A stretch of 64,000 nucleotides of DNA from an uncultured Bacteroidales bacterium (GTDB lineage: Bacteria; Bacteroidota; Bacteroidia; Bacteroidales; FEN-979). Of the stretch, positions 23,622 to 64,000 are shown piece after piece (positions within the stretch are counted from its first letter, which is position 1; each line of letters starts with the position of its first letter). A program made the translations under genes and the position numbers. Under the pieces are notes generated by a model. It was not told the origin of the DNA. It worked only from the letters and a program-made list of their open reading frames with translations, and searched no databases. The stretch lies in the NCBI GenBank assembly GCA_963800585.1, contig CAWDBP010000007.1, positions 371,770 through 435,769 of the forward strand. The letters are read 5' to 3'.

Positions 23622-23629
23622 AGGGATTT

Positions 23630-25682: not shown

Positions 25683-25690
25683 TAATAAGA

Positions 25691-25715: not shown

Positions 25716-25725
25716 AAAGTTTTAG

Positions 25726-25814: not shown

Positions 25815-25824
25815 AAAGAGTTTG

Positions 25825-25832
25825 CAAAGGTA
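25825..25832 (-). promoter_or_regulatory. Bacteroidota -7 promoter box (TACCTTTG) for tRNA-Ser
   Basis: CAAAGGTA on the + strand is an exact TAnnTTTG on the minus strand, 11 nt upstream of the mature tRNA 5' end. Confidence 0.5.
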
Positions 25833-25849
25833 TCAAAAATATTGAATTC

Positions 25850-26878: not shown

Positions 26879-26930
26879 GTGGGTAATATTGGGTATCGGG
26901 TGTTAGGTAATGGGTATTGGGTTTAGGGTG
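26879..26930. repeat. GGGTATT-type heptad spacer between the TatD-family gene stop and the ansA start
   Basis: GGGTAATATT GGGTATC GGGTGTTA GGTAAT GGGTATT GGGTTTA GGGTG. On the coding (minus) strand it is a C/A-rich AATACCC-type tract ending at the ansA ATG. A related tract lies at 37637-37698. Confidence 0.55.
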
Positions 26931-29331: not shown

Positions 29332-29368
29332 ACGAAAATGGTTCTAGGTGCTGATTCATAAAGCACTG

Positions 29369-29376
29369 CAAAAGTA
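29369..29376 (-). promoter_or_regulatory. Bacteroidota -7 promoter box (TACTTTTG)
   Basis: CAAAAGTA on the + strand is an exact TAnnTTTG on the minus strand, 38 nt upstream of the MBL gene ATG at 29331. Confidence 0.4.
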
Positions 29377-29455
29377 CGAAAATTGGGTGTGGTGCCGTGA
29401 CATTTAAAATAATCTTAACTTAGCCGTCCCTTTTACACCCATTGTTTATAGAACT

Positions 29456-34230: not shown

Positions 34231-34508
34231 TTATCTAAATGACCAGTAAAAACAGGCGTTTTGAATAATTAACCACAGGTTTGTCCAATCCTAATCACAT
34301 TTATTTTTAATAAGAATGAATTATCAGGCACTATTATTTTTGTACTCAAACAATTAGATATAACCAGACCCAAGATGTTAATAAGTTAAATTGATTTGCT
34401 GACTTTCTTCTTTGTAAATTGCTCCTTGAAAATTCTTCAATATTACAATCATATCACATTTAATTTTGCGTTGTTTACAGATTTATGATTTCATAATAGA
34501 TTTTTGAT

Positions 34509-49202: not shown

Positions 49203-50375
49203 TTATTCGACTTCAACATCTGCAAATTCTTCCGCATCTGAATAAGCTACCTGGCGGTGGCCAAATAATGAGATCACTTTACCGGTAACCAGTCCAAGCC
49301 CGAGAGATAATATGATGGTCACAGTGATCCCTGTTAGTTGTGCTCCGGCGCTTAAACCGGAAACAACCGGAATAGCGATGAGTCCGCCAAAAAGGCCAGG
49401 GAGTCCGTGAAGATTACTTACACCACAAGTATCCACAGCCTTCAGAAACTTTTTTTGTTTTTCCTGAAGAACTGCAAATCCGGTAGTAGATATAGCTCCT
49501 GCCACAAGTCCGATTATCAGGGCAGTCATATGATTTGCATGGTCACAGGTTGCACCGATCGCAACACCACCGGCCAGGGCGGCATTTGCAATGTCTGCAA
49601 TGCTGATCTTTCCACGGATCCAGACAGATAACAGGTATGTAACGAGCGTAGAACCGCAAAGAGCAAGGAATACATTTATAACTGTCATCGGAATAGCTTC
49701 TGCCGGAACAAGGGCAGCACAGAAACTTGGCCAGAAGATCCAGAGGACCATACTTCCTATCATAGAGAACCGGTCGCTGGAATCATCAGATGTTATGGGC
49801 TTATCTATAGTTTCGGAGGACGTTAATGACATTGCAGCCCCGACTCCGAACAATGCACCAAAGGCATGAATGACAATAGATCCGCCTGTATCTGCAAATC
49901 CACTCTTTAACAATCCAAGCCCATTATCCAGGATAATCCATTCATTCAGCATGTAACAGGGAATGAAAAGCAATCCAAGGATGAGGTACTGATGCATCTT
50001 GATCCTGCCAAGCAAGGCTCCCGCTGCGATCAGCAAACTGGCTGCCCCGAACTCTGCAAGGATGAGACGCTGGATCTCTACATTGCTGCCATCACCATGT
50101 ATCAGGCTGCTTCCAGCCAAATATAATGGTAACGCTATACTTACAAGAAGAAATGTGGCCGTCAGGGCTGACCGTCCATAATTTTTAACAAATACCATCA
50201 GAAACCCAAAGCCCAGGATCAACATGGCCATAATATGAATGGCACGGTCATATTGCTGAAATTCAAGGATTGAAGTAACTTCGGTTTTTACATTTCCCTG
50301 CGCAAAGCCTCCGGCGGCCAAGCCAAGGAAAAGGAGAGAAAGGAATAATTTTAATGTAAAACTGCTTTTTTTCAT
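49203..50375 (-). CDS. Rh-type (Rh50-like) ammonium/ammonia channel
   Basis: 390 aa with a signal peptide and about 11 TM helices. The Rh-family strings are FADTGGSIVIHAFGALFGVGAAM, VLWIFWPSFCAA and VDTCGVSNLHGLPGLFGG, rather than the AmtB-type motifs. Confidence 0.8.
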   Translation of the reverse strand: MKKSSFTLKLFLSLLFLGLAAGGFAQGNVKTEVTSILEFQQYDRAIHIMAMLILGFGFLMVFVKNYGRSALTATFLLVSIALPLYLAGSSLIHGDGSNVEIQRLILAEFGAASLLIAAGALLGRIKMHQYLILGLLFIPCYMLNEWIILDNGLGLLKSGFADTGGSIVIHAFGALFGVGAAMSLTSSETIDKPITSDDSSDRFSMIGSMVLWIFWPSFCAALVPAEAIPMTVINVFLALCGSTLVTYLLSVWIRGKISIADIANAALAGGVAIGATCDHANHMTALIIGLVAGAISTTGFAVLQEKQKKFLKAVDTCGVSNLHGLPGLFGGLIAIPVVSGLSAGAQLTGITVTIILSLGLGLVTGKVISLFGHRQVAYSDAEEFADVEVE

Positions 50376-50489
50376 CTTTTATAGTGTTTAATGTGGGATA
50401 AAATCTCATCTGCTTTTCCACTCAATCACCCCAAAAAATAACTGAATGGAAATTACTTTACACCCTGGATTTGCGGGTGGGTATCTAAC

Positions 50490-50541
50490 TACGTAAAATA
50501 CGTAACTAATACATCTAGATCAGATACGTATAAAACGTAAT
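50490..50541. promoter_or_regulatory. Two 17-bp TACGTA-N3-ACGTAA units in the divergent Rh / hypothetical-gene promoter region
   Basis: TACGTAAAATACGTAAC (50490-50506) and TACGTATAAAACGTAAT (50525-50541) start 35 bp apart. ACGT cores are spaced 9 bp within each unit. A further TTTTACGTTA lies at 50715-50724. Confidence 0.35.
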
Positions 50542-50671
50542 TTCGTCGGCGAAAATACTTAAAATATTATTACCTTTTAAATAATACCGTTGAAAAAATT
50601 CAGAAAGAAATGAAAATATGGTCTTTTTGGAAGGCATAAATAAAAGCAGGTAGTTCAGGGAAAAAATATTT

Positions 50672-50679
50672 TATCTTTG
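50672..50679 (+). promoter_or_regulatory. Bacteroidota -7 promoter box (TATCTTTG)
   Basis: An exact TAnnTTTG followed by CAGG lies 76 nt upstream of ATG 50755. Confidence 0.45.
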
Positions 50680-50754
50680 CAGGACTTCGATTGCTTTACA
50701 GGTTAATAGGCTTATTTTACGTTATCTTTCAAATGACTTTTATTGTCTTGCCTT

Positions 50755-51576
50755 ATGTGGATTAAAATGTTCTTATTGATAATGGCTTTCCCGGTGATAA
50801 GTACACTGTGTTTGGCACGAACCTCCAATCATTCCGACAAAGGGAAAAAATATCCCTCCACTTATAAGGAAGGAATTGTAGTGAATGGAAATTCTTCGGA
50901 ATGGGAGAACTCACTATTCAGTTTTAATAAGGATGCACAGGTCAATTATTCAATAGTAAACGATTCCAATGCAATTTATATTTGTCTCCGGATAGCGGAT
51001 GAACATGCCCAGTTGAAGGCTTTGCGAAATGGGATTGAGATTCGTTTTAACAGCAGAGGGAAGAAAAAAGCAGAGGCCACGCTGCATTATCCTATCGGGG
51101 GCAAGACTGATATGGGAGGAAGGATGAACCAGGATGACAATCGGACCAGGAAAACGATGCACCTGATGTTTCTGCTGCAGATGCAGGATATGGAATTAAT
51201 TGGATTTAAAAATGGGTTCAATGGATTGCAGAGCACCAAATCGGGCAAAAACGGGTTTCTTGCAACTGTTAACTGGGATTCTACCAATGTACTGGTTTAT
51301 GAAGCCAGGATTCCATTCAATGCTTTTGCTACTGATATAAAGGCGGCAAATCCCCTGGCTGTTGGAATCATTATAAAAGGCGCTCCTAAACCACGCCAGG
51401 AAGACAGAGAAGGAGGAGCGCAAGACCAGGGACAGCCTGGAATGCAAGGTAGACAGGGACAAGGTCGTCCCGGTGGCATGGGAAGGGAAGGTTCGATGCA
51501 GGGTTACGGTGACAATATGAAGATTTTCGAAGATGATGAGATTTGGCAATCAATTGTGGTTGCTAAGAAAGAATAA
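50755..51576 (+). CDS. Secreted hypothetical protein with Gly/Gln/Arg-rich low-complexity tail
   Basis: Signal peptide MWIKMFLLIMAFPVISTLCLA. The C-terminal region is QDREGGAQDQGQPGMQGRQGQGRPGGMGREGSMQGYG. I recognised no family. Confidence 0.55.
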   Translation: MWIKMFLLIMAFPVISTLCLARTSNHSDKGKKYPSTYKEGIVVNGNSSEWENSLFSFNKDAQVNYSIVNDSNAIYICLRIADEHAQLKALRNGIEIRFNSRGKKKAEATLHYPIGGKTDMGGRMNQDDNRTRKTMHLMFLLQMQDMELIGFKNGFNGLQSTKSGKNGFLATVNWDSTNVLVYEARIPFNAFATDIKAANPLAVGIIIKGAPKPRQEDREGGAQDQGQPGMQGRQGQGRPGGMGREGSMQGYGDNMKIFEDDEIWQSIVVAKKE

Positions 51577-51618
51577 AATTAGCACTTCTTTAATCATGAT
51601 TCCTAATTTCTTATTCCT

Positions 51619-52596
51619 ATGACCTTGATATTAAACAAAGCCGATGTGGCATCAGTGCTTCAGATGAAAGATTGTATGCTTGCAGTTGAACAGGCATTTG
51701 CCGAACTATCCAATGGATCAGCAGTGCTACCATTAAGGATTGGCATTGCCCCGCCGGATGGTCTTTCTCTTTATATGCCTGCTTACCTGAAAAAAATGGA
51801 AGCACTGGCTTGCAAGGTGGTAACTGTCTATAAAAATAATCCTGTGAAACATAACATGCCGACCACAATTGGCAAAGTCTTGCTGCAGGACCCTGCTACC
51901 GGGGATGTGATATGCATTATGAATGGAGGTTATCTGACGGCTATAAGAACCGGTGCGGCCAGTGGAGTGGCTACCAAATTTCTTGCCAGGGATGAGAAGA
52001 ATCAGGTAGCAGGTATTTTTGGTGCCGGTGTTCAGGCAAAAATGCAATTATGGGCAGTATGTGAAGCACGGAATATTACCAAGGCATTTGTTTATGATAT
52101 CTCGGATGCTGCAGCAGATGCATTTATTGCAGAAATGGAGATAAAGTTAAACCTTGAGATCATCAGGTCAAAAACACCAGAAGAATTACTCCGGGCAGAT
52201 ATCATTTGCACAGCTACCTCATCACCTTCTCCTTTATTTGACGGGAATAAGGTTCGAGAAGGTACACACATAAACGGTATTGGCAGTCATACGTCAACCT
52301 TAAGGGAATTGGATACATCCATCGTTAAACGCTCTAAATTCATAGGAGATTCACGTGAAGCTTGTTTTAAGGAAGCAGGTGATATCATGATCCCGGTAAA
52401 TGCCGGTGAGATACCTGAAAGTCATTTTTATGCAGAACTTGGAGAGATCATTACGGGGCAGAAAAAAGGAAGGGTGAATGAAAAAGAGATCACGCTATTC
52501 AAATCCAATGGACTTGCCATACAAGATGTTGCTGCAGCCAAACTGGTTTATAACAAAGCTCTCGCGGCAGGTATCGGGATCAGGATCGAAATTTAA
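51619..52596 (+). CDS. Ornithine cyclodeaminase / mu-crystallin family protein
   Basis: 325 aa with N-terminal LNKADV...MKDCMLAVEQAF, Rossmann GIFGAGVQA, and TAIRTGAASGVATKFLA. Confidence 0.88.
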   Translation: MTLILNKADVASVLQMKDCMLAVEQAFAELSNGSAVLPLRIGIAPPDGLSLYMPAYLKKMEALACKVVTVYKNNPVKHNMPTTIGKVLLQDPATGDVICIMNGGYLTAIRTGAASGVATKFLARDEKNQVAGIFGAGVQAKMQLWAVCEARNITKAFVYDISDAAADAFIAEMEIKLNLEIIRSKTPEELLRADIICTATSSPSPLFDGNKVREGTHINGIGSHTSTLRELDTSIVKRSKFIGDSREACFKEAGDIMIPVNAGEIPESHFYAELGEIITGQKKGRVNEKEITLFKSNGLAIQDVAAAKLVYNKALAAGIGIRIEI

Positions 52597-52624
52597 TTCT
52601 AAATCCCTGCATTCCTTCATTCCT

Positions 52625-52632
52625 TACCTTTG
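52625..52632 (+). promoter_or_regulatory. Bacteroidota -7 promoter box (TACCTTTG) for the ABC-F gene
   Basis: An exact TAnnTTTG followed by CAGG lies 27 nt upstream of ATG 52659. Confidence 0.5.
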
Positions 52633-52658
52633 CAGGAAACAGAGCCGATTTAATCACA

Positions 52659-54528
52659 ATGCCCTCATTATTACAAGTTGAAAATTTATCCCGCTCCTAT
52701 GGGGAAAAAGTTCTTTTCCAGGATATCTCCTTTGTTATAAACCAGTACCAGAAAGTTGCCCTGATCGCCAGGAACGGAGCTGGTAAAACCACTCTTTTAA
52801 ATATTATTGCAGGTTTGGAGCCTTCCGATGGAGGTACGGTCAAATTTTTTAATGATGTTTCCATCGGCTACCTGAAGCAGGATCCTGAATTGAATGAATT
52901 TAACACTGTTTTTGATGAAGTTTATGAGTCGTCCAATGAGATTCACAGGACAATCCGGGATTACGGGAAAGCCATCCTTGGGGACGACAAAAAAGAGATC
53001 CAGAAAGTTATTGAGCGAATGGATGCTGTTGAAGGGTGGGAATATGAAACGCGGGTGAAGCAGATCCTTTCAGAATTAAAGATCACGGATCTTGAACAAA
53101 AAGTAGAGAAACTCTCCGGTGGACAGCGAAAAAGAATTGCCCTGGCAAAGACATTGATTACAGAACCTTCTTTTCTTATCCTGGATGAACCTACAAACCA
53201 TCTTGATATAAATATGATCGAATGGCTGGAAGACTACCTGACCCGTTCGCGCATTACCCTATTCATGATCACACACGACCGCTACTTCCTGGATCATGTA
53301 TGCGAAGAGATACTGGAATTGGATAATGCCTCCCTCTTTCGTTATAAAGGTAATTACTCATATTTCGTGGAGAAGCAGGCAGAGCGGAAAGAGAATCAAT
53401 CGAAAGAAATTGAAAAAGCCCGCAACCTGCTGCGAAAAGAGCAGGAATGGATGATCAGGATGCCCAAAGCGAGGACCACCAAATCAAAGGCACGTATCGA
53501 GAGTTATTATGACCTAAAATCAATTGCCGGCAGTAAGATCAGGGAGGAAAAAATCAATATGGATATTGGTACCGGCAGGATAGGGAAAAAGATACTTGAG
53601 ATGCGGCAGGTTTCTTTTAGTTGGAGCGAGGCAGCCTATCCTGCAGGATTTCTTTTATACCTTCAAGCGGAATGAGAAAATAGGCTTTGTGGGAAACAAT
53701 GGTTCGGGAAAATCAACCTTCCTTGAGATCATAACCGGTCAACTCCGGCCTTCATGTGGAAGGATAGAAAAGGGAGAAACGATAACCTTCGGGTACTATA
53801 AGCAGGAAGGAATCACTTTTAACGAGGATTCCCGGGTAATAGATGTGATAAGGGATATTGCTGAGGTGGTCACCCTGAGTAATGGTGATACTGTCTCGGC
53901 GGCAGCTTTTTTAAATTACTTTCTATTCCCTTATTCCACGCATTACCAGTTGATAAGTAAGCTTAGCGGGGGAGAAAGGAGACGATTGTACCTGGTTACT
54001 GTCTTAATGCGAAATCCAAACTTTCTCATCCTTGATGAACCTACAAATGACCTTGATATTTTTACCTTGGCAATTTTAGAGGAATATCTTTCTTCCTTCA
54101 AAGGATGTGTGATCATTGTGACCCACGACCGTTATTTTCTTGATGAGATCGTTGATCACCTGTTTGTATTCAAGGGAGAGGCCGTGATTAAAGATTTTCC
54201 TGGAAACTACAGCCAATACAATGCTTATCGTATACGTAGGGAAAGGGAAGAGAACAGATTGTTGCAGGCATCCCGGCAGAAAACAGAAAAGCCACAAATC
54301 GTAACCATACAATCCAATAAATTGTCCTTTAAAGAAAAAAGAGAATTAGAGTCTTTGGAAACGGAGCTTGCACGATTGGAAGAAGAGAAAACAAAAATCG
54401 AAATCACGCTGTCGTCCGGAATAATTTCCCAGGAAGAACTCTCAATGAAATCCGAACGATTTGCTTTAATTCTGAAAGAGATTGAAATAAAATCCGACCG
54501 CTGGCTGGAACTCAGTGAAAAAGGATAG
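52659..54528 (+). pseudogene. ABC-F family ATPase (two ABC domains) split by a frameshift near 53610-53630
   Basis: ORF1 (52659-53675) carries Walker A ARNGAGKTT, signature LSGGQRKR and Walker B ILDEPTNHLD. ORF2 (53596-54528) carries GNNGSGKST, LSGGERRR and ILDEPTNDLD. The two ORFs overlap by 80 nt in different frames, whereas ABC-F proteins are normally one ~620-aa chain. Confidence 0.8.
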
Positions 54529-54640
54529 ACTATCTCATATATGTTTGAAATTGATATTTTATGAATCGTTTCACCACTTCCTGAAATTGAAATGACTTAC
54601 TGTTCGATCTGAAGGAGGTAATTGTTGATCAAAGAAACGA

Positions 54641-54774
54641 TGTCCCTGGGACATTTGATGTAACAGTTATTGCTACATTCAGTGATCCGGAACAGATCTT
54701 TTGGAGAGGTGGAGTACAACAAGATTTAATACTGGTTGTACGTTACATCAAAAATTGGGGAATCCCAGGGCATC
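54641..54774 (+). other. ~134-nt imperfect palindromic / nested-stem element (candidate structured RNA or MITE-like repeat)
   Basis: P1 pairs 54641-54652 with 54764-54774 (11 bp, one bulge). P2 pairs TTTGATGTAAC (54655-54665) with GTTACATCAAA (54743-54753), 11 bp perfect. P3 pairs GTACAAC (54715-54721) with GTTGTAC (54736-54742). CTGTCTCTTTTTGG follows. Confidence 0.5.
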
Positions 54775-55029
54775 TGTCTCTTTTTGGTACTTTTAGATAT
54801 TTTTTGTTACTGTTAAAGTTTGATATTATTTTCTTTTGATTTTACGAAGGTCATTCCATCGTTGGATTCTGAAATGCAAACAATATGCCAATTGGACATA
54901 TGGAATATGCAATTAACTTCCTTATTAATTCATTTGGTTAAAAATCAAATTATTATAAAAAGTATTTTTTGTAATAATTTTTAAAAAACTTTAAAAGAAG
55001 TATCCGGAATCTGATTTTTAATAGCAATA

Positions 55030-55047
55030 TTCGCACAGGTGTGCGAA
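55030..55047 (-). terminator. Perfect 18-bp palindrome abutting the stop of the sigma-54 activator gene (weak terminator or operator)
   Basis: TTCGCACA GG TGTGCGAA lies 2 nt from the stop codon at 55049-55051. No T-tract follows on the minus strand, so terminator function is doubtful. Confidence 0.3.
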
Positions 55048-55048
55048 A

Positions 55049-56431
55049 TCAATCCTCTTTTTTGATCCTGATATTATGTTTTTTCATTCTGCGGATGAGA
55101 GAATCTCTTGTTATTCCCAAGGCCTCTGCGGCTGCTTTTTGGTTATAGGAATAATCCCTTAAAGCCTGCCTGAGCAATCGTTCCTCGAATTCCTTCATGT
55201 TCAGTCTTTCAATTTTATCGCTTGCCGGAGACACGAGGTTTGGTTTCAAGGTGAAATCCTTGATCGTCAGAAAATTCCCCTTTGAAAGAATAACTGCTCT
55301 TTCCGTCAGATTTTTTAATTCTCTAACATTTCCGGGAAAGGAATATTTTTTCAATCCTTCAACGACGTTTTTTTCTATTTTCAGTTGAGGTTTGTTCATC
55401 CTGATTGAGAATTCTCTAACAAAATGGACCAGTAAAGGTTCAATATCTGCAGGCCTTTCCCGCAGAGGCGGTATATGAATGTGCAGGGTGTTTAAACGAT
55501 GGATGAGATCCAACCGGAATTTCTTTTCACTTACAAGTTTGTCAACATCGTGGTTTGTTGCGGCAATTACCCGGAAGTTCACTTTAATTTCTTCTGTCTC
55601 GCCTACACGGGTAATTTTTTTTTCTTCAATAGCCCGGAGTATTTTAGCCTGAAGGCTAAACGGCATATCCGCGATCTCATCAAGGAAAAGCGTTCCTTGG
55701 TCTGATACCTCGAAAAAGCCCTTTCTATCGGTGATGGCTCCAGTGAAGGATCCCTTTTTATGGCCGAAGAACTCACTCTCAAGCAACGATTCCGTTATAG
55801 CACTGCTGTTCACAGCACAAAAAAGGTTGTCCTTCCGTTTGCTGGAATAGTGGATAATCCTGGCAATATTCTCTTTTCCGGTACCGCTTTCTCCTGTGAT
55901 CAGGACATTCGTATCGGGAAATTCCGAAGCAGTAAGTGCCAGTCCCAGTACTTCCTGGATCTTTTGGCTTCCCCCAATGAAATCCCGTTCAATCTTTTCT
56001 CCAAGTGCTTTTGAGATCAGGGAGTTTTTCTCCTCCATTACCTGTAATTTCCTTTTAAGGGCGAGAAATTTTTGAGTTCTTTCCATGGCGATTTGGAAAT
56101 CCAAATGCCTGAAAGGTTTACGAAGGTAATCTGTGGCTCCCAGTCGTAAGGCCCTGATCACGGATTCCATATCCCCATGTGCTGAAACAATAATGACCTC
56201 CAGTGTTGGATAGATTGTCTTTAACTCCTTCAGAAGATCCAACCCGTTTGTTCCGGGAAGACGTATATCCAGGATTAGTAAGTCAATCTCATGGCATTTC
56301 AGAATATTCATTCCTTGCCGTGCAGTATTTGCAATGTATACCTTATGTCCTTTCTTCTGAAGCATTTCATTCATTTCTTCAGTAAAACTCCGTTCGTCAT
56401 CAATTACAAGGACTGTTATTTTAGGTTCCAT
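55049..56431 (-). CDS. Sigma-54-dependent response regulator (REC - AAA+ - HTH, NtrC family)
   Basis: 460 aa. The receiver has DDE...DLLILDIRLPG...RKPF. The AAA+ module has GESGTGKE, GSFTGA (a GAFTGA-loop variant), ESEFFGH and LFLDEI. The C-terminal Fis-type HTH is AAEALGITRDSLIRRMKKH. Confidence 0.93.
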   Translation of the reverse strand: MEPKITVLVIDDERSFTEEMNEMLQKKGHKVYIANTARQGMNILKCHEIDLLILDIRLPGTNGLDLLKELKTIYPTLEVIIVSAHGDMESVIRALRLGATDYLRKPFRHLDFQIAMERTQKFLALKRKLQVMEEKNSLISKALGEKIERDFIGGSQKIQEVLGLALTASEFPDTNVLITGESGTGKENIARIIHYSSKRKDNLFCAVNSSAITESLLESEFFGHKKGSFTGAITDRKGFFEVSDQGTLFLDEIADMPFSLQAKILRAIEEKKITRVGETEEIKVNFRVIAATNHDVDKLVSEKKFRLDLIHRLNTLHIHIPPLRERPADIEPLLVHFVREFSIRMNKPQLKIEKNVVEGLKKYSFPGNVRELKNLTERAVILSKGNFLTIKDFTLKPNLVSPASDKIERLNMKEFEERLLRQALRDYSYNQKAAAEALGITRDSLIRRMKKHNIRIKKED

Positions 56432-56477
56432 CTAACAGGATTATTTGTAAACTAATAAATTCTATTTTGGTTTATTT

Positions 56478-58586
56478 CTATGTCTTTTCAACTTGTTTCT
56501 TTTTATCTTTTTTTATCGGGATTCTGATCCTGATCATTGTACCAACAAACCTTTCACTTTGGATCTCAATAGTCCCATGCATGTCGCTAATTATGCTAAA
56601 TGAAATAGAAAGACCGAGGCCCGTACCAACGCCTTCTTTTTTTGTCGTATAAAATGGCAACATGACTTTATCGATGTCATTTGGATCTATCCCTATACCG
56701 TTGTCCTTAACTTCCACACAAACAGATTGATCCACCCGGTGTGAAGATATTTCCAGTATCTTGTTAAAATCCTGTTTCAGAACATTCTGCTTTTCTTCAA
56801 TTGCATCTTTGGCATTGATAATGAGGTTTACCATGACCTGCTCAAATTTGTAAGTGTTTCCAATAGGACGTGGAAGATTTCCATCAAGGTTTATGACAAA
56901 GTGAATCCCTTTATGCTTAAATTGTTCAGATATCATGGATTTTGCATTCCGGATACTTTCATTAATATTGAACCTCGTTTGGATATATTCATCATGGTCT
57001 TTTGAAAATGCCCTAACATGGTCAATAATGTTTCGTATCCGCGTAATGTTATCGAAGATCTTCGAGGTTTTATTTTCAACGTATACTTTATCCTGAGAGT
57101 CGCCATTAAGATGGAGCATCAGGTTATCCATTGTGAGTGAAATAGTGTTCAGTGGTTGATTTATCTCATGCGCCATACCTGCGGCCATGACGCCAATTCC
57201 CGCCATTCTTTCTGTATGTATCAATTGTTTATCCATTCTTTTTCGTTCAGAAATATCACGGATGACTACAAGATATCCTTTAGTCTCCTTCAAGCCTTTT
57301 TTCAAAAGGCTGATGTTCACCTCACCGACGAAAGTGGTATTGTCATTTCTTATCAGGGTAAGCTCGATGGTATGGGTGATCCCTTTTTTAACTTTATCGG
57401 AAAAATATACCCTTTTTTGTTTACGAAGTTCAGCTGGAATAAGTTCCACAAACATTCTTCCAATGAATTCTTCCTGTGAAGGAGCTTTGAATATTTCAAG
57501 GATGATATTAGAAACTTCAGTAATTCTCCCCTGTGGGTTAATTATCATAATACCTTCCTTCGTTGCATCCAGCAAAATGCGATGGATCTCTTCTGATTCG
57601 ATCAGTTCCTCTTCAACACTTTTCCGATGAAAGGAACTTGAAAAAAGTTTTGAAAGGGTGATAAGAAGGTTGAATTCTTCGAGGGTCCAGCGCCCTGGAT
57701 TTTCAATGTTATCAAGTCCAAGGCATCCGATTACACCCTCATCGTCCATAATTGGAAGGATCATAAGTGACCGTATTCCGAAATTTTGAAGCAGCGATCT
57801 GTACTTCTCCAAATCATCCGGAAGATTATGTGTGTCAGGAATTAAAAGGTCCCGTTTTACCTCGAGTTCCTCGAAAAACCAATCATACAGGAAATGAACA
57901 TTGTCATTCTGTTCATACAATGCAGAATTTTCACCCTGGCAACTCCATTCATAAGTCGGGCCAATTTCTTTACTTGTCTTATTCTTAATCAATATAAAAA
58001 CGGTTCGGGCTTTGGAGTAATTACATATTTCTTTAATCGAATCGAGAATAGCCTGATCAAAATCAGCAATTCCGATAAGACGTGCGGAAATTGTTGAAAC
58101 AATTTTTTCGATCAGAAGCTTCCGCTGAAGATTGTTCTCCGCCACTTTGCGGTCAGTAATATCACGAACAATCGCGGTATAGAATTTTCCTTCTTTTGTT
58201 GAAAATCCTCCAAAAGAAATTTCCAAAGGAATAATTTTACCATACTTATGATACCCCTCTGCTTCTATTCTCTTCTTCTCTTTAATAACTGTACTATTCA
58301 GAATATTGTTGATAGTGTTCTTGGGATTTTGATCATCCTTTGAATTGATCAGGAAAGTTATAGGTTTACCAATGATCTCATGGGTTCTATACCCGAATAT
58401 AGTTTCAAATTCCGGGTTGAGATAGAAAATTTTTCCTTCTTCATCAATGCTGATAATTGCATCTGTAGCAGATTCTGCAAAAATCTGAAACCGCTTCTCG
58501 CTAAGATGTAACGCTTCTGAGGTGCGTTTCCTTTCCACGATTTGCCGTATCAGCAACAGGAAACGGTTCAAATCAAGGGGTTTCAT
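56478..58586 (-). CDS. PAS-GAF-PAS sensor histidine kinase (NtrB-like H-box)
   Basis: 702 aa with PAS modules ending VRDITDRK and IRDISERK and a central GAF-like region. The H-box is GMAHEINQPL. HATPase motifs are DNGIGI and GTGLGLSIS. Its first residues MKPLD complete the upstream receiver (see findings). Confidence 0.88.
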   Translation of the reverse strand: MKPLDLNRFLLLIRQIVERKRTSEALHLSEKRFQIFAESATDAIISIDEEGKIFYLNPEFETIFGYRTHEIIGKPITFLINSKDDQNPKNTINNILNSTVIKEKKRIEAEGYHKYGKIIPLEISFGGFSTKEGKFYTAIVRDITDRKVAENNLQRKLLIEKIVSTISARLIGIADFDQAILDSIKEICNYSKARTVFILIKNKTSKEIGPTYEWSCQGENSALYEQNDNVHFLYDWFFEELEVKRDLLIPDTHNLPDDLEKYRSLLQNFGIRSLMILPIMDDEGVIGCLGLDNIENPGRWTLEEFNLLITLSKLFSSSFHRKSVEEELIESEEIHRILLDATKEGIMIINPQGRITEVSNIILEIFKAPSQEEFIGRMFVELIPAELRKQKRVYFSDKVKKGITHTIELTLIRNDNTTFVGEVNISLLKKGLKETKGYLVVIRDISERKRMDKQLIHTERMAGIGVMAAGMAHEINQPLNTISLTMDNLMLHLNGDSQDKVYVENKTSKIFDNITRIRNIIDHVRAFSKDHDEYIQTRFNINESIRNAKSMISEQFKHKGIHFVINLDGNLPRPIGNTYKFEQVMVNLIINAKDAIEEKQNVLKQDFNKILEISSHRVDQSVCVEVKDNGIGIDPNDIDKVMLPFYTTKKEGVGTGLGLSISFSIISDMHGTIEIQSERFVGTMIRIRIPIKKDKKKQVEKT

Positions 58587-58897
58587 TTCAAATGAAACGA
58601 TCTTTTTTTCTTGACTGCCTCTATTGCAATTTCCATCGTTCCATATCCCGTGATGATGATGAACTCCATATCTGGGATCATGCCAGATAATTCTTCAACC
58701 AGTTCCAGTCCATTAGCATCCGGCAATTTTATATCGATAAGCGCGAGTCCAAATGATCTTTCATTGCAAATCCTGATAGCTGTTTCCCGATCCTGAGCGA
58801 TGGCCGTGCCAAATCCATTTTCTTTCAGGATGTCTTCCAGTGAAAGTGTTAATTCAACGCTATCATCAATGATGAGTATATCGAAATTTTCTTTCAT
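58583..58897 (-). CDS. Receiver domain ORF lacking the C-terminal Lys-Pro segment
   Basis: 104 aa with DD at residues 11-12, the phospho-acceptor context LALIDIKLPD, and IIITGYG. It ends EAVKKKRSFHLK* after an A7 run and overlaps the kinase start via ATGA. Confidence 0.8.
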   Translation of the reverse strand: MKENFDILIIDDSVELTLSLEDILKENGFGTAIAQDRETAIRICNERSFGLALIDIKLPDANGLELVEELSGMIPDMEFIIITGYGTMEIAIEAVKKKRSFHLK

Positions 58898-58908
58898 TCC
58901 GTAATTAG

Positions 58909-59670
58909 TTAATGCGGGTTCTCAAATATTTTTTCCCTTTTGAGGTTTTCGATCTGTTCCAATAATGAAAGCAGAGTATCAATATTTATTGGCTTCTCAA
59001 GAAGAGCATATGCGCCGGCTTTCCTTGTCATTTCGACCATTTTTTCAATCTCAGCCAGGAATCCTGTTATAATGACAACCACAATGCCCGGGCAAAGACG
59101 GCGGATTTCCAGGTACACCTCGAGTCCGTTCAACGGTGGAAGTTTCATGTCCAGAAGCATAATGTCAAAAGCAAATGTTCTCACTTTTTCAATCGCTGAT
59201 GTACTATCCAGGGCGATTGATACACGGTACCCTTTTTGGATGAGAATATCTTTAAGATTTTGGCATAAATTCTCATTGTTGTCAGCAACAAGTATCATTG
59301 ATCCATTAGGAATGGCTTGTTCAATAGTAATGAACAATTCATCGAAATCCAATGGTTTTTTCAGACAAGCAAATGCACCTTCTTGTAAGGATTCCTGTAT
59401 GAGTTCCTCCAGGGCATAGGCCGTTAGCATGATGACTGGTACTTCCGGATTAATAGATTTGATTTTTTTAAAGGTCTCTACACCATTCATGACAGGCATT
59501 TTGATGTCCATCAGAATGAGATCGACGGTAGATGTTTTAATTATTTCCAGGGCCTCGAATCCATCGTTAGCTATCCGCACTTTATATCCTTTTAATTCAA
59601 GGATATCACTGACATTTTGTGTAAATTCCTTATTGTCATCTGTTAAAAGAATGGTAGGTTTCTTTTTCAT
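58909..59670 (-). CDS. Stand-alone double receiver (REC-REC) protein
   Basis: 253 aa with two complete receivers: ILLTDDN...LILMDIKMPVMNG...MLTAY...KKPLD and ILVADNN...IMLLDMKLPPLNG...IITGF...EKPIN. There is no output domain. Confidence 0.88.
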   Translation of the reverse strand: MKKKPTILLTDDNKEFTQNVSDILELKGYKVRIANDGFEALEIIKTSTVDLILMDIKMPVMNGVETFKKIKSINPEVPVIMLTAYALEELIQESLQEGAFACLKKPLDFDELFITIEQAIPNGSMILVADNNENLCQNLKDILIQKGYRVSIALDSTSAIEKVRTFAFDIMLLDMKLPPLNGLEVYLEIRRLCPGIVVVIITGFLAEIEKMVEMTRKAGAYALLEKPINIDTLLSLLEQIENLKREKIFENPH

Positions 59671-61367
59671 ATTTTTTCTTCTGATGGTTCTTTTAATTCT
59701 TCCCTGACGAGCGGCATCCTGATGGTGAATTTAGCTCCCATTCCCGGTTCTGCCTGCACAAATATTTTTCCTCCATGGTTTTCAATGATCATTTTTGTAA
59801 TCGACAGGCCGAGACCAATTCCTTTTGCCTTGGTTGTGAATAATGGCAGGAATACCTGATTTAAATGATCAGGATCAATCCCGACTCCAGTGTCTGAAAA
59901 TGATATTTCGACTTCGGCATTTTCTGTTTTACGAATTATTATTGTCAAGGTTCCAATTCCATTCATGGCAGCCACGGCATTCTTCACCAAATTATCAATA
60001 GCCATCCTGAACTGTTCTTTCTCAGCTCTAATGTGAAACACTGTTTCCGGAAAATCTTTCACAATCTTTACTTTATCAGGTATAATACAAGTTTCAAGGC
60101 AGTTGGCAAGGAGGTCAGTTACATCGTAGCGTGTGAGTACAGGTTTGTTCATCCGGGTCAGGCTCAGAAGGTTATCGATGATGATGGTTGCACTTTTCAC
60201 ACTTAAGCTGATCCGTTCAAGATGTTGTTGAACCTTCTCATCTTTTTCGTTCAGACGCAGCTGAAGATAATAGATAGAACTATCAATAACTCCCAATGGA
60301 TTTCGAAGTTCGTGGGAGATATTTCCCGAAAATTGGCCGAGAATAGCAAGACGTTCCTTACGTATTAATTCCTCCTGTGCTGCTTTCAATTTTCTTGAGG
60401 TTTCGTTCATATCCTCAATCATATAAAGCATTGCAAGCTGACTTCTGTTCAATTCGTTTATTTTTTCCTCATGATCTCTGGTCCTCTCTGCCACTTTGAC
60501 CTCCAGATCATTTTTTATACGGTGGAGCTCCTCATTAGTTTTGTTCAGTTCAAGTGTACGTTCCTTTACTTTTTTCTCCAGGTCCTCATACATTCCTTCC
60601 AACTCACTGGCCATTGCATTGAAATTAGTAGCAACCTGCGTCAGCTCATCCTGACCTTTGATTTCGAGTAACTGTTTGAAATTTCCTTTTGCCATTTTGG
60701 TTGTTACATTGTTGATCGACTTTAATCGCCGGGTGATGGATAATGACAAATAAAAGGTAATAAGGAGGCTTATCATCATGCTCAATATGATTGTGATAAA
60801 CCCGATGAGTTTGGCATTGGTTGCTACCCTGACTGAATTTTCAGTAAAAGATATTGCCTTGTTTGTTGCATAATCTCCAAGCTGATCTAATTCAAACTGA
60901 AGAATACGGACATGTGAATCACCTTCGGTAAGGTTTACGGTTTTTGCTTGTTTATCTTTTCCATTTTTTGCAAGAGAGATTGTTTTTTCACGGATTGGTC
61001 TCCATTGATAAAAAGTGATCCTGGCTTTCAGGGCAAGTGCTTTTCCTTTGTTACCAAGAATTTGTCTCTGTATCAAAGAGAATAAACCCGACACCTGATT
61101 GTCTTTTTGTCTTATGTCTCTCATGAGATTGATCAATTCAGTCGAATCATGCGAATATGAAATTCCATACAAGTCACGCTGAATTGATAAAACCAGAACC
61201 TCTATATCCTGAGATGCACGGGATACAACCATAGGATGTGCAAGAGTTCGTCCCAGCGAATCAACCACGAGTTGTAGGTTATGTATTCCTTCCAGGTACA
61301 TCACGATGAATAGAAGAATAATGAAAAGAAATCCACTTAGTAACTTTTGTCGTATCCCGAATTTCAT
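59667..61367 (-). CDS. Membrane HAMP-domain sensor histidine kinase
   Basis: 566 aa with TM1, a ~170-aa extracytoplasmic helical region, TM2, HAMP and a coiled coil. The H-box is NISHELRNPL. HATPase motifs are DTGVGI and GIGLGLSI. Confidence 0.9.
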   Translation of the reverse strand: MKFGIRQKLLSGFLFIILLFIVMYLEGIHNLQLVVDSLGRTLAHPMVVSRASQDIEVLVLSIQRDLYGISYSHDSTELINLMRDIRQKDNQVSGLFSLIQRQILGNKGKALALKARITFYQWRPIREKTISLAKNGKDKQAKTVNLTEGDSHVRILQFELDQLGDYATNKAISFTENSVRVATNAKLIGFITIILSMMISLLITFYLSLSITRRLKSINNVTTKMAKGNFKQLLEIKGQDELTQVATNFNAMASELEGMYEDLEKKVKERTLELNKTNEELHRIKNDLEVKVAERTRDHEEKINELNRSQLAMLYMIEDMNETSRKLKAAQEELIRKERLAILGQFSGNISHELRNPLGVIDSSIYYLQLRLNEKDEKVQQHLERISLSVKSATIIIDNLLSLTRMNKPVLTRYDVTDLLANCLETCIIPDKVKIVKDFPETVFHIRAEKEQFRMAIDNLVKNAVAAMNGIGTLTIIIRKTENAEVEISFSDTGVGIDPDHLNQVFLPLFTTKAKGIGLGLSITKMIIENHGGKIFVQAEPGMGAKFTIRMPLVREELKEPSEEKI

Positions 61368-63502
61368 TTGTTCATCTTTTCAAGTTGTAATTCCAGTTCT
61401 TCAATTCGGGTTCGCATTTCTTTCATTCGCAATTCCCTGTCGATAGTTGCCTTATAAAACCGTTCCAGTTCCTTGACCCGTTCCTGTAATTCTTTTGTTT
61501 TTTGCTCAACCTTATGTTCCAGGATGACATTCATCTCCTTTACTTCATTTTCCATTTTCTTGCGTTCAGTAATATCCCTGACTATTCCCCAGAAACCATT
61601 GGCATTTCCTTCCTTATCTTTATGAAGGAATAACCGAACTTCGACCGGGAACCGGGTGCTATCCTTTCTGCAATATTCTATCTCAAAAACTTCAGAATAA
61701 CCCCGGCTCATCACCTGGGTTTCTATTATTCCGTCAACTTTCTCATACCATTCTTCCGGAACAATTCTTCTTATGGATTTCATGTTGTTAATATCATTCT
61801 GAGAATAACCTGTCATGGTAAGAAAGAAAGAGTTGTTCTCGATTATCCTTTTGTTCATATCCATAAGGACAAAACCATCCCGGATGCTTTCATAAAGTAA
61901 TCGATATTTGCGTTCAGATTCCCTTAATTCTTTTCCAGAAGCAACCGATTTCGTGATATCCACTGCCATCAGGATGATACCATGAATCTTATCTTCTTTA
62001 TTCAGCAATGGGGCAGTGTAGATTTCCAAGTCAAGTTCTTTCCCCAGGATTGATTTGTAATGAATTTCCCCGGCATTGATTCTTTCAGCACTAAGAAGAC
62101 GGGAGATCTCAATCTCGCTTAACACAGATTTGATCTGAGGTACTTCCTGGAAAAATTTTCCAACAACAAATGATTCTGTCTCTTCCGGAGTCCCCATCAT
62201 TAGTTTCATTGCAGGATTTTCATAGGTTATCAATCCTGTCTGATCCAGGAAAAGAATACCTACCGGGGCTGACTCCACCAACCCGTGGTTAAACATTTCT
62301 GAAATAATAAGCGATTCCTGGGTTTTCTTTTGATCGGTAATATCGAAATTGATACCAGTCAAACGAAGGGGAGTTCCTGCTGAGTTCCTTACAACCTGGG
62401 CATATGCTTTGATAAAATGAATGCTGGTGTCTTTATAGACAACCCTGTATTCGCTATTGTATTCTTTTTCACCGTTGAGCGCCTGATTGATTTCTTCCAT
62501 GCACCTGGCAACATCTTCCGGATGCAAAAGTTTAAGCCAGTCATCGAGATTACCTGCGAACGCTTCCTGTTCTATTCCATAAAGTTCAAACATTTTATCA
62601 TCCCATAAAAGCTTATTGGCTTTTATATCCCACTCCCACACTCCCATTTCACCGGAACGTGTAGCCAGGTTAAACCTGTCAATCAATTGTTCAAGTTCCA
62701 GTTCTGCATTTTTCCGTTCTGTGATATCACGTACCACAACCCACATTCCATCAGGGTTACCTTTTTCATCCCGAATCAGGGAAATCCGTATTTCAACAGG
62801 GAAAACAGTTCCGTCCTGTTTTCGGCATTCCTTTTCAAAAACGTCTGAATAGCCATTAGGAACAACCTGATTATTAATAATCCTTTTTTCATACTCATGC
62901 CAATGATGAGGGGTGATATCTAAATAATTTAAATTAAGCAATTCTTCATCCTTGTAACCCAGCATCGAGCGGAAGTAAGAATTAAATTCCCTGATGTTTC
63001 CATCCATATCTAAGCGTACGAATCCATCCATCAGGCTTTCATACAACCGACGATATTTTGTTCCCGTTGATCGAAGTTCTTCACTTGCACGTCTGCTGCC
63101 TGTAAGATCAAGGAATAGAGTTGCAAACCAATTTTCTTTTGGAATAAATACGGAGATCTCAAAATAACGGTCCAGCAGTTGAAAATAGGTCGTAAAAAAA
63201 TAGGGATCTCCTGTTTTTAAAACGTGCTCGTATATATCAATATATGGAGGAGGGGTCACTCCGTATAATACACTTGCAAGTGCACCTTTGGCTTTATCTG
63301 AAGGAATTCCCAGATTCTTTTCGAAGGAAGGATTAACATCCCGGATGATATAATCAACAGCTTTTCCTTTTTCATCATAAATCATCTGGTGAATAGCAAC
63401 ACCCTCCGTCATAGTGGCGAACAGGGAGTGGAAATTAAATTCATTTTCCATGATATCCTCTCCTTCAGATCCAGCATTCTTTGGATTGTTCCGTTCTGTC
63501 AT
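61364..63502 (-). CDS. Five-PAS soluble sensor protein with C-terminal coiled coil and no transmitter
   Basis: 712 aa with five PAS-like modules; modules 2 and 5 are internal paralogues, both ending VRDITERK. The C-terminus KELQERVKELERFYKATIDRELRMKEMRTRIEELELQLEKMNK is coiled coil. No HisKA/HATPase or other output motif is visible. Confidence 0.85.
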   Translation of the reverse strand: MTERNNPKNAGSEGEDIMENEFNFHSLFATMTEGVAIHQMIYDEKGKAVDYIIRDVNPSFEKNLGIPSDKAKGALASVLYGVTPPPYIDIYEHVLKTGDPYFFTTYFQLLDRYFEISVFIPKENWFATLFLDLTGSRRASEELRSTGTKYRRLYESLMDGFVRLDMDGNIREFNSYFRSMLGYKDEELLNLNYLDITPHHWHEYEKRIINNQVVPNGYSDVFEKECRKQDGTVFPVEIRISLIRDEKGNPDGMWVVVRDITERKNAELELEQLIDRFNLATRSGEMGVWEWDIKANKLLWDDKMFELYGIEQEAFAGNLDDWLKLLHPEDVARCMEEINQALNGEKEYNSEYRVVYKDTSIHFIKAYAQVVRNSAGTPLRLTGINFDITDQKKTQESLIISEMFNHGLVESAPVGILFLDQTGLITYENPAMKLMMGTPEETESFVVGKFFQEVPQIKSVLSEIEISRLLSAERINAGEIHYKSILGKELDLEIYTAPLLNKEDKIHGIILMAVDITKSVASGKELRESERKYRLLYESIRDGFVLMDMNKRIIENNSFFLTMTGYSQNDINNMKSIRRIVPEEWYEKVDGIIETQVMSRGYSEVFEIEYCRKDSTRFPVEVRLFLHKDKEGNANGFWGIVRDITERKKMENEVKEMNVILEHKVEQKTKELQERVKELERFYKATIDRELRMKEMRTRIEELELQLEKMNK

Positions 63503-63716
63503 TATCGGATGTTCATCTTGTTAATTTGTCCCTTCGATTTCTTGTCTTTCCTAACACAGTGCTTAATGAGTTATATTTTTTTCAAACACTTATCAGTTGC
63601 TTGCTACGTAAAACACAGGGAGAATCTCAAATAAATTGAAATTACCCTTCCTGAAAGTATAAAAATTTAAAAAATCCAATATTACAGACCGTTTTTTTAA
63701 AGATTATTTGATTATC

Positions 63717-63730
63717 TCTGATGCATCAGA
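63717..63730. promoter_or_regulatory. Perfect 14-bp palindrome upstream of the signalling operon
   Basis: TCTGATGCATCAGA lies 215 nt upstream of the ATG at 63502. It is a candidate operator or enhancer-binding site, but no supporting second copy occurs in the window. Confidence 0.3.
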
Positions 63731-63789
63731 AAAGGCGAAGAATTAAATTACTTATGTTTGTTTTTCTATCCCGAAAATAGTAAGTTAAA

Positions 63790-64000
63790 AGTAGAAGTTT
63801 ATATCCACAATTCAAATAGCGGGAATCCATATATTTTTATTACGGGAAACCGCTATACAACTCATGCCTATAAAAAGTAATCATATTGTTAATCAATGCG
63901 AAAGAAAAATAATATGGCGTGCATTTTGCACGCCACGATTTTTCATTCTACCCGGATTTCTCTTCATTCTCCTCTTTTTTTTATAAATTTACTTCTTCTT
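63790..64000 (-). repeat. ~190-bp intergenic element, copy B (inverted relative to copy A at 5100-5290; runs off the window end)
   Basis: The reverse complement carries GAAATCCGGG (63951-63960), hairpin TGGCGTGC/GCACGCCA (63915-63935), ATTGATTAACAAT (63885-63897), ATAGCGGTTTCCC (63844-63856) and ATGGATTCCCGC (63819-63830). Order and spacing match copy A. Confidence 0.6.

Follow-up and report, generated by a model that had tools for sequence, protein, structure and literature searches.

The window, the whole 64,000-nucleotide stretch of DNA analysed here, carries on its minus strand a receiver ORF that ends just short of its conserved Lys-Pro motif and overlaps a histidine kinase ORF read in another frame. 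This arrangement raises the question of whether the two ORFs are separate genes, a single gene expressed by programmed recoding, or a single gene that lacks one base, either in the organism or in the assembly.

A hybrid sensor kinase gene divided between two ORFs

The receiver (REC) ORF (58583..58897, minus strand) encodes 104 aa and matches the Pfam profile PF00072 (Response_reg) with 62.6 bits at a cutoff of 30.2. It contains the acidic pair D11/D12, D55 (LALIDIKLPD) and T83 (IIITGYG), all of which are invariant in 22 aligned sequences. The match covers positions 1-91 of the 111 in the profile, compared with 1-108 for the fusion obtained with an A8 run, and the ORF terminates as ...EAVKKKRSFHLK*, before the conserved Lys. 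Residues 1-98 are authentic; the last six (RSFHLK) are out-of-frame read-through and represent the conserved KIVSFE read in the wrong frame, and the beta5/alpha5 portion with its Lys-Pro and a complete alpha5 is missing. The second ORF (56478..58586, minus strand; 702 aa, start MKPLDLNRF) has the domain order PAS-GAF-PAS-HisKA-HATPase_c and equals residues 105-806 of the ancestral protein. The start codon supplies the conserved Met of FEMKPLD and is shared in part with the stop codon at which the truncated receiver ends (ATGA); extension of the kinase frame upstream gives KKIVSFEMKPLD. K106 and P107 (fused numbering), likewise invariant in the 22 aligned sequences, appear only when the -1 frame is read or when A8 fuses the two ORFs.

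The frame changes within an A7 run (T7 on the plus strand; 58603..58609, minus strand) that is one base shorter than the A8 of all close relatives, the minus-strand coding sequence at the break being GTC AAG AAA AAA AGA TCG TTT CAT TTG AAA TGA. The REC ATG and the kinase ATG are 311 nt apart and, since 311 mod 3 = 2, the downstream frame lies at -1 relative to the REC frame. As deposited, the window thus holds the kinase domains split over two ORFs instead of one uninterrupted ORF. An eighth A in the run yields one 806-aa REC-PAS-GAF-PAS-HisKA-HATPase_c protein, with KKKKIVSFEMKPLD as the junction peptide expected of the full-length product. Judged from the sequence, including identity to a protein encoded in other samples and the orthologue clusters described below, the two ORFs constitute one hybrid sensor histidine kinase gene with an N-terminal receiver (56478..58897, minus strand; 806 aa with A8), interrupted in the record because the Lys-codon run AAG AAA AAA AAG (A8) is one A short. 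The initial annotation had proposed that a frame change in the A7 run cuts the receiver before its Lys-Pro and that a -1 shift would be required, and sequence, frames and Pfam match bear this out; its predicted fusion by an eighth A likewise stands in domain order, the length being 806 aa and not the ~810 aa first given. The motifs that it had cited from the other receivers of the operon are also present, KKPLD and EKPIN in a 253-aa double receiver and RKPF in an NtrC-type regulator.

The kinase gene belongs to a conserved operon for a multi-component phosphorelay, with an NtrC-type sigma-54 activator as its last member. The operon genes upstream of the kinase (58909..63502, minus strand) were assigned from ORFs and Pfam domains and encode a multi-PAS protein of 712 aa (61364-63502), a 4HB_MCP-HAMP-HisKA-HATPase kinase of 566 aa (59667-61367) and the double receiver (58909-59670); their order is identical in sibling and orthologous loci. 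Downstream of the kinase lies the NtrC-type activator, whose Pfam domains are REC-AAA+-HTH (55049..56431, minus strand; 460 aa); its synteny is conserved in loci L082-L086 and L133, and the pathway probably acts through it.

Tract length in sibling assemblies and orthologues

The hypothetical A8 fusion is 100% identical, residue for residue, to an 806-aa protein (P0121) encoded in three independent samples (Logan ERR11571142, JGI 3300050025 and Logan SRR35911547), a match far beyond chance. At the DNA level, the sibling loci L082, L083 and L084 are 99.93-99.95% identical to the window and read AAGAAAAAAAAGATC where the window has AAGAAAAAAAGATC. Over positions 53635-64000 (10.4 kb), A8 versus A7 is the sole difference between them and the window. 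Elsewhere, contigs of run ERR11571142 match 17 kb of the window with 100.000% identity, which indicates that the window haplotype is present in this run, and the ERR11571142 contig across the operon has A8. The exact 104-aa product was found on one contig only, of 547,080 bp, in a collection of ~15 billion proteins. Collectively, these data demonstrate that all relatives have a single, in-frame gene and that this A7 allele is confined to the one contig. The window and its siblings differ by 9 synonymous, 11 nonsynonymous and 3 intergenic substitutions, a pattern resembling genuine strain variation, and those nearest the tract include 53520 and 53447; the window is accordingly a distinct haplotype, one that could carry a real mutation.

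More distant homologues show the same continuity. All 22 orthologue clusters (798-822 aa) run through the site without a break; 21 of them, 49-87% identical to the fused protein, were aligned, and the 22nd (74-75%) was left out. At least 21 clusters (49-88% identity) are single proteins of ~800 aa with the segment [KR]KKKIVSFEMKP. A separate receiver of ~104 aa, which the initial annotation had named as the pattern to look for among orthologues, is not what they encode. Several orthologues break the A run with a G and yet stay in frame: four lineages interrupt it (AAAAAGAAG, AAAAAGAAA, AGGAAAAAG and CAGCGAAAG), all without loss of the frame, so the run is dispensable. A scan of genome representatives returned a best match of only 49% identity, among Bacteroidales and Prolixibacteraceae MAGs. 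Exact look-ups of the 903-aa RNR and the 381-aa ORF gave no match, which a substitution or a different start-codon call may explain, and that of P0001 gave none either, though the protein collection does contain its sequence.

Other tract lengths occur at two loci. In L133 (Logan SRR11309070, 44-kb contig), an unrelated lineage with 70% aa identity, the homologous tract is A7 and lies mid-contig (region 6283-6300); restoring A8 there produces an ORF of 504 aa that is collinear with the orthologues P0036 and P0037 (499 aa). Close relatives of L133 that could date its A7 were sought and none were found in the collection, where it is a singleton. L001 has A9 at a distance of 9-17 nt from the end of its contig, a position at which assembly is unreliable; L098 has A8 and otherwise matches L001 throughout 2949 nt, the two differing in the tract alone. 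Off-length alleles appear to separate otherwise identical sequences in two comparisons, A7 versus A8 (window and L082-L084) and A9 versus A8 (L001 and L098), and technical error is possible for each of these and for the A7 of L133. From these alleles, the tract appears indel-prone elsewhere too. The 702-aa protein P0024, which starts with MKPLD, was considered as a second split gene and rejected, its contig merely beginning 33 nt upstream; its tract reads A9 but stands at the contig edge, and we give it little weight.

The tract shows no conservation exceeding codon bias. The AAA fraction at its Lys columns is 0.75 and 0.17, compared with a mean of 0.75 at 16 other invariant Lys columns; Lys usage across the gene is AAA 428 : AAG 170, and the synonymous sites of the tract do not exceed those of other Lys codons in conservation. 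At either end of the tract the codon is consistently AAG or AGG; this caps the run at 8 and argues for avoidance of longer runs and not for selection for instability.

Consensus error or recent contraction

The interruption is a non-programmed contraction from A8 to A7, either a consensus error or a very recent slippage mutation. Comparison with the siblings leads us to favour, by a modest degree of confidence, a consensus error of this assembly over a mutation. In that case, a long-read consensus would have dropped one A from the A8 at 58603-58609 and thereby produced two ORFs, and the real organism would make the ordinary fused kinase. At 547 kb, the contig was probably assembled from long reads, and the errors that persist in such a consensus are typically single-base indels. 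A search of the literature for the run and sample accessions, which might have named the sequencing platform, gave no papers. Nanopore consensus sequences characteristically retain homopolymer indels, by which gene calls become fragmented (Sereika et al. 2022, PMC9262707).

A second defect 5 kb from the tract bears on this choice. At position 53634 (plus strand), the window has an extra G (GGCA[G]CCTATCC), a non-templated, non-homopolymer single-base indel that is unique to this assembly and absent from L082-L084. It splits the gene of a 622-aa ABC-F ATPase into ORFs 52659-53675 and 53596-54528, each half holding an ABC_tran domain; deletion of the base restores an uninterrupted 622-aa ORF, and the 338-aa ABC-F fragment is seen only on the 547-kb contig in the collection of ~15 billion proteins. 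Four window-specific substitutions adjoin position 53634, three of which alter the protein. This second gene-breaking indel and the nearby substitutions suggest local consensus problems.

The remainder of the comparison shows few irregularities. The two indels are the only 1-base indels in the ~54 kb compared, and 41 of 41 other homopolymers of at least 7 bases, 14 of them runs of 8-9, match those of the siblings; an error, if any, is therefore sporadic and not systematic. A Pfam scan of ten overlapping same-strand ORFs in the window for other split genes revealed no frameshift excess, and all Pfam-matched overlapping ORFs were intact and separate (KAS II, RNase III, cyclophilin, thymidine kinase, Dus and a flavoprotein). 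The low number of indels, the concordant homopolymers, the strain-like substitutions and the A7 of L133 speak against an error. The A7 of L133 cannot reflect the same technical event, and it indicates that off-length alleles arise repeatedly.

These observations lend some weight to a real, very recent replication-slippage deletion from A8 to A7 in this strain, an explanation that we regard as a serious possibility though not the probable one. The receiver would then have lost beta5/alpha5 and its conserved Lys and would probably be inactive; translation could still begin at the conserved Met of the ATGA and yield a receiver-less PAS-GAF-PAS kinase, which would be uncoupled from upstream phosphorylation, or else the whole gene would be a nascent pseudogene. 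Long A/T runs are hypermutable by replication slippage (PMC1088944), L001 and L098 differ in nothing but the tract, the window is a distinct haplotype with substitutions that look genuine, there is no sign of systematic homopolymer miscalling, and the lack of substitutions over 10 kb around the tract fits a very recent event. Against a mutation stand the occurrence of this A7 allele in no other assembly while A8 is found in three samples, and the second, non-slippage frameshift in the conserved ABC-F gene, an unlikely coincidence if both were real. The A9 of L001, moreover, lies at an unreliable contig end, and the tract, interrupted in four lineages and capped by AAG or AGG, is not kept beyond codon bias.

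In a more specific form of the mutational explanation, the tract would be a hypermutable phase-variation switch, in which slippage among A7, A8 and A9 reversibly toggles between the receiver-controlled hybrid kinase and the receiver-less kinase started at the conserved Met. This form draws on the A7 and A9 alleles of the window, L133 and L001, which are separate lineages, and would imply subpopulations with a rewired phosphorelay. We consider it improbable: when the locus was tested as a phase-variable one, the tract proved not to be maintained by selection beyond codon usage, four lineages interrupt the run, and its AAG/AGG flanks speak of avoidance of longer runs. Poly(A) frameshifts in endosymbiont genes are partly rescued by polymerase slippage, in runs typically of 9 bases or more.

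Programmed recoding, separate genes and comparison with known systems

Under programmed recoding, A7 would be the working allele, and transcriptional slippage (+1 A in the mRNA) or -1 ribosomal frameshifting would yield the short receiver and the full-length hybrid kinase at a fixed proportion; this is very unlikely here. The shift required is indeed -1, an A-rich run is intrinsically shift-prone, and A7 recurs in L133; the site in dnaX is A-AAA-AAG, and -1 frameshifting at C-AAA-AAA amounted to 25-60% in an E. coli expression vector (PMC1851650). An 8-bp AU-rich hairpin (GUUUCAUU-UGA-AAUGAAAC) begins 4 nt 3' of the run, and a low, incidental amount of full-length product from the A7 template is plausible. 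However, the two-ORF arrangement is not conserved, the complete orthologues and the near-identical siblings from three samples being in frame, and the zero frame AAG/AAA/AAA/AGA offers the heptamers G-AAA-AAA or A-AAA-AGA, neither of which is a canonical X-XXY-YYZ site, although C-AAA-AAA does shift in E. coli. The fold of the downstream 93 nt has a z of -1.81, with 12 of 200 shuffles equally good, and is not significant; the Ser wobble base that pairs in the hairpin varies freely (A, T, C, G), and the downstream RNA has no match in Rfam. Selection against slippage-prone A/T runs in bacterial coding regions is evident at ~9 bases in a large proportion of genomes, and documented transcriptional slippage sites use nine bases, or eight in a few organisms, and not seven (PMC1088944); the run of 7 in the window is below that length. 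Siblings with A8 and orthologues with G-interrupted runs are all in frame, and programmed recoding is therefore not supported.

The initial annotation had listed three possibilities, of which a sequencing or assembly indel and a recent mutation both stay viable; the third, a slippage-prone tract with two products, finds no support in view of the A8 siblings, the G-broken runs, the ordinary conservation of the Lys codons and the weak hairpin. That the ORFs are natural genes of their own, one for a short receiver that stands alone and one for a kinase lacking a receiver, has next to no probability: gene callers annotate the ORFs apart and the ATGA overlap resembles translational coupling, but all orthologues are fused, the 104-aa ORF stops at Pfam position 91 on residues of a shifted KIVSFE, and the sole other 104-aa case (L133) has the same one-base defect.

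For annotation, the two ORFs are best treated as one hybrid sensor kinase gene, frameshifted or mis-assembled, and neither as a short receiver beside a receiver-less kinase nor as a recoding site. A suspected frameshift of this type can be resolved cheaply, without reads, from near-identical contigs of other samples. Were the contraction real, it would constitute a natural experiment in which the regulatory receiver is removed from a PAS-GAF-PAS kinase feeding an NtrC-type activator, and would be an ordinary loss-of-function or rewiring mutation involving no new mechanism.

The locus shares with E. coli dnaX (A-AAA-AAG) and the C-AAA-AAA site of pDEST17 (PMC1851650) an A-rich Lys run, a -1 shift and a shifted product containing KKKK, but differs from them in having no conserved two-ORF layout, in-frame canonical heptamer or significant stimulatory structure. 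The dnaX shift, furthermore, yields a shorter product by design, whereas a shift here would only repair a defect. A poly-A run at the junction of overlapping ORFs for one protein is also found in Thermus thermophilus dnaX and the 9A IS elements (Baranov et al. 2005, PMC1088944) and in Citrobacter rodentium tssM (PMC4256274); at these transcriptional slippage sites the run measures 8-9 bases or more, in contrast to 7 in the window, whose homologues are simply in frame. With simple-sequence-repeat phase variation and with endosymbiont poly(A) frameshifts (PMC3017870), the locus has in common an A8 tract with apparent A7 and A9 variants of otherwise identical sequences in three lineages, each variant breaking the frame, although the tract is only 7-8 bases long and not conserved beyond codon bias.

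The resemblance to nanopore consensus errors (PMC9262707) consists in a one-base change in an A/T homopolymer that splits a conserved gene in one assembly only, the others being intact; it is qualified by the 41 correct homopolymers of at least 7 bases. The restored protein and all its orthologues have the domain order of hybrid histidine kinases with an N-terminal REC (REC-PAS-...-HisKA-HATPase_c) and their conserved DD, D, T and K-P receiver residues. The alpha4-beta5 segment [KR]KKKIVSFEMKP, compared with the common G-A-x-D-Y/F-L-x-K-P, is a family-specific variant in an otherwise usual receiver, and the homopolymer frameshift is an ordinary one.

A receiver–kinase gene split at a homopolymer

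On the minus strand of the window, the coding sequence reads ...GAG GCA GTC AAG AAA AAA AGA TCG TTT CAT TTG AAA TGA, with an A7 run at 58609–58603 (T7 on the plus strand at 58603–58609). Two minus-strand ORFs meet here: a receiver fragment of 104 aa (58583–58897), ending ...EAVKKKRSFHLK*, and a kinase ORF of 702 aa (56478–58586), which begins MKPLDLNRF and whose frame yields KKIVSFEMKPLD when translated upstream of its start. The kinase ATG follows the receiver ATG by 311 nt, which places the second frame at −1 relative to the first. One added A unites the two ORFs. In Pfam comparisons, the 104-aa ORF covers positions 1–91 of 111 of the Response_reg profile and the A8 fusion positions 1–108, and the 702-aa ORF contains PAS, GAF, PAS, HisKA and HATPase_c domains. 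Sequence, translation and Pfam profiles confirm the initial annotation, according to which the receiver is cut before its Lys-Pro by a −1 offset at A7 and would be joined to the kinase by an eighth A. The single REC-PAS-GAF-PAS-HisKA-HATPase protein proposed there indeed needs only that one base, its size being 806 aa rather than roughly 810 aa. The motifs KKPLD, EKPIN and RKPF, cited for the neighbouring receivers, are present in them.

A search with the hypothetical fusion yielded 22 clusters of 798–822 aa, each with receiver (REC), sensor and kinase domains; identity to the fusion was 49–87% for the 21 clusters that were aligned. The separate ~104-aa receiver considered in the initial annotation was not seen among these orthologues, all 22 clusters being fused and continuous across the site (...EAV[KR]KKKIVSFEMKPLD...). 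Residues D11, D12, D55, T83, K106 and P107 are invariant in the 22-sequence alignment. P0121, an 806-aa protein in the 90% cluster of the window protein, matches the hypothetical A8 product at every residue. It is encoded in three independent samples (Logan ERR11571142, JGI 3300050025 and Logan SRR35911547), which share the operon order multi-PAS protein, 4HB_MCP-HAMP kinase, double receiver, REC-PAS-GAF-PAS kinase and NtrC-type activator. The family comprises two architectures, one of ~806 aa (REC-PAS-GAF-PAS-HK; P0002–P0025) and one of ~500 aa without the GAF and second PAS domains (REC-PAS-HK; P0036, P0037 and contig L133); the KKKIVSFE[MV]KP junction is kept in both.

Near-identical contigs from other samples

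The three contigs encoding P0121 are 99.93–99.95% identical to the window. Over 53635–64000 (10.4 kb), the sole difference is AAGAAAAAAAAGATC in the siblings and AAGAAAAAAAGATC in the window. With further sibling contigs added, the comparison spanned window positions 9285–64000 and revealed only two single-base indels, the tract and an extra G at 53634 (GGCA[G]CCTATCC). The extra G lies outside any homopolymer and is not found in three sibling assemblies. It splits a plus-strand ABC-F ATPase gene of 622 aa into ORFs of 338 aa (52659–53675) and 310 aa (53596–54528), both containing an ABC_tran domain; its deletion regains the complete ORF. The other homopolymers of at least 7 bases in the compared region were concordant in 41 of 41 cases, 14 of them of length 8–9. 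Neither the truncated receiver of 104 aa nor the ABC-F fragment of 338 aa was seen outside the 547,080-bp contig of the window in a collection of ~15 billion proteins.

Substitutions between window and siblings look like genuine strain variation. The 23 that were classified, all at window 31601–53520, comprise 9 synonymous, 11 nonsynonymous and 3 intergenic changes; relative to the JGI contig, further substitutions lie at 17373–29959. Four window-specific substitutions lie near 53634, at 52984, 53117, 53447 and 53520 (four in ~540 bp; three of four nonsynonymous), and at a fifth position, 52979, the window differs from the JGI contig only. Elsewhere, contigs L131, L087 and L090 of run ERR11571142 match the window across 17 kb at 100.000% identity, in stretches where the JGI strain differs; the window haplotype is thus present in that run, despite which its contig covering the operon carries A8.

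Other differences were observed along the alignment. A ~1-kb segment at 33261–34257 is missing from the JGI sibling contig L088/L132, its flanks overlapping by ~11 bp in the alignment; its ORF at 33280–34230 (316 aa) corresponds to the C-terminal portion of a DDE transposase (PF01609, positions 43–200 of 200), and the segment is probably an IS-derived insertion polymorphic between strains. A 3-bp indel at 26884–26886 (ATATTACCC in the window, ATA---CCC in the JGI sibling) is apparently intergenic, with asparaginase and TatD genes on either side. At 50244–53634, a mosaic SNP pattern (relative to L082, L083 and L088) reveals at least three haplotypes among the window, ERR11571142 and JGI 3300050025, and the adjacent 10.4 kb (53635–64000) contains zero substitutions. 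This pattern suggests that co-occurring strains recombined or that a sweep recently passed through the operon region.

Consensus error or slippage deletion

Two explanations are left to weigh, a consensus error and a real slippage deletion of very recent date. On the sequence comparisons, we judge the chance that A7 in the window is a consensus error of the assembly to be slightly better than even. One A would have been lost from A8 in the assembly, and the gene would be single and in frame. The A7 allele is unique to one contig, and A8 is found in three samples, one of which carries the window haplotype elsewhere. The 547-kb contig suggests long reads, sibling short-read contigs breaking at 2–70 kb, and the contraction matches the residual homopolymer indels that are known to fragment gene calls in nanopore consensus sequences (PMC9262707). 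A non-slippage frameshift 5 kb away, in the conserved ABC-F gene, is likewise unique to this contig.

A real deletion from A8 to A7 has an appreciable probability, short of even, which includes a small chance that the tract is reversible in the manner of phase variation. In its favour, all 41 remaining homopolymers are correct, the haplotype of the window is distinct and genuine, and A/T runs are hypermutable via replication slippage (PMC1088944). Furthermore, A7 recurs in an independent lineage. A search with the 104-aa fragment yielded P0143, a 104-aa receiver of 70% identity ending ...EAVKKKRLFRLR*, on contig L133 (Logan SRR11309070, 44 kb), which carries a syntenic operon with the tract mid-contig (6283–6300; GTT AAG A7 G ATT GTT TCG TTT GAG ATG AAG CCA). 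As read, L133 encodes P0143 and a 400-aa PAS-HK ORF; one additional A gives a 504-aa REC-PAS-HK ORF, collinear at residues 1–492 with the 499-aa orthologues P0036 and P0037. No close relatives of this organism were found in the protein collection, leaving it a singleton. Two further orthologue contigs, L001 (JGI 3300046485; A9) and L098 (A8), align over 2949 nt free of mismatches, with a gap at the tract alone. The A9 sits 9–17 nt from the contig start, where assemblies are unreliable; since L001 begins 8 nt upstream of the run, the assembly break coincides with the homopolymer. Three lineages thus have an off-length tract, with A7 in the window and L133 and A9 in L001. By this comparison the tract is indel-prone, technically or biologically.

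Recoding and the role of the intact kinase

Programmed recoding at A7, the slippage-prone tract with two products envisaged in the initial annotation, is highly improbable: nothing points to a programmed device, and the orthologue and sibling comparisons effectively exclude it. Siblings carry A8, and orthologue DNA collected with a degenerate pattern for IVSFEMKP contained G-A8-G in frame at ten distinct loci, as well as interrupted versions that were also in frame (AAA AAG AAG, AAA AAG AAA, AGG AAA AAG and CAG CGA AAG). It follows that the A run can be dispensed with and that the two-ORF layout lacks conservation. When 12 lineages were aligned by codon, the fraction of AAA was 0.75 and 0.17 at the invariant Lys columns of the tract and averaged 0.75 at 16 other invariant Lys columns (overall AAA 428 : AAG 170). 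At window 58598–58612 and the orthologous loci, the first codon of [KR]KKK is always AAG or AGG and the last usually AAG (10 of 12 lineages), AAA making up 72% of Lys codons; these bounding codons limit the run to eight. This pattern fits avoidance of longer A runs; according to Baranov et al., a large share of bacterial genomes shows selection against such runs once they reach about nine bases, and the slippage sites in their analysis were 9A or 9T, with 8A in a few organisms (PMC1088944).

The downstream 93 nt fold no more strongly than expected (z = −1.81; equal or greater stability in 12 of 200 shuffles), and an Rfam search gave no match. An 8-bp AU-rich hairpin (GUUUCAUU-UGA-AAUGAAAC) is possible 4 nt past the A run; its DNA is the near-palindrome GTTTCATT-TGA-AATGAAAC (58580–58598, minus strand), coding for VSFEMK, and the Ser wobble base on which it depends varies in orthologues (A, T, C, G). 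The zero-frame heptamer is G-AAA-AAA or A-AAA-AGA, neither of them a canonical X-XXY-YYZ. A −1 shift on C-AAA-AAA is known from an E. coli expression vector (PMC1851650), which makes an incidental full-length product conceivable; such read-through from the A7 template is plausible. That the two ORFs are naturally separate genes has a negligible probability, being effectively excluded by the same orthologue and sibling comparisons.

Domain content and synteny suggest a hybrid kinase as the intact protein. Phosphate would presumably reach its N-terminal receiver from the upstream 4HB_MCP-HAMP kinase or via the double receiver; the protein would integrate PAS/GAF inputs and pass the signal to the NtrC-type sigma-54 activator. 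A genuine A7 would leave a receiver that lacks β5/α5 and the conserved Lys and is expected to be inactive. Translation of the kinase part could nevertheless begin at the conserved Met, since its ATG and the premature stop overlap as ATGA; the kinase would then be freed from receiver control, with trace full-length protein arising by slippage. For annotation, the locus should be treated as one gene, frameshifted or mis-assembled. Taken together, the case is a homopolymer frameshift of one base, ordinary in kind, that affects a conserved gene for a hybrid sensor kinase.
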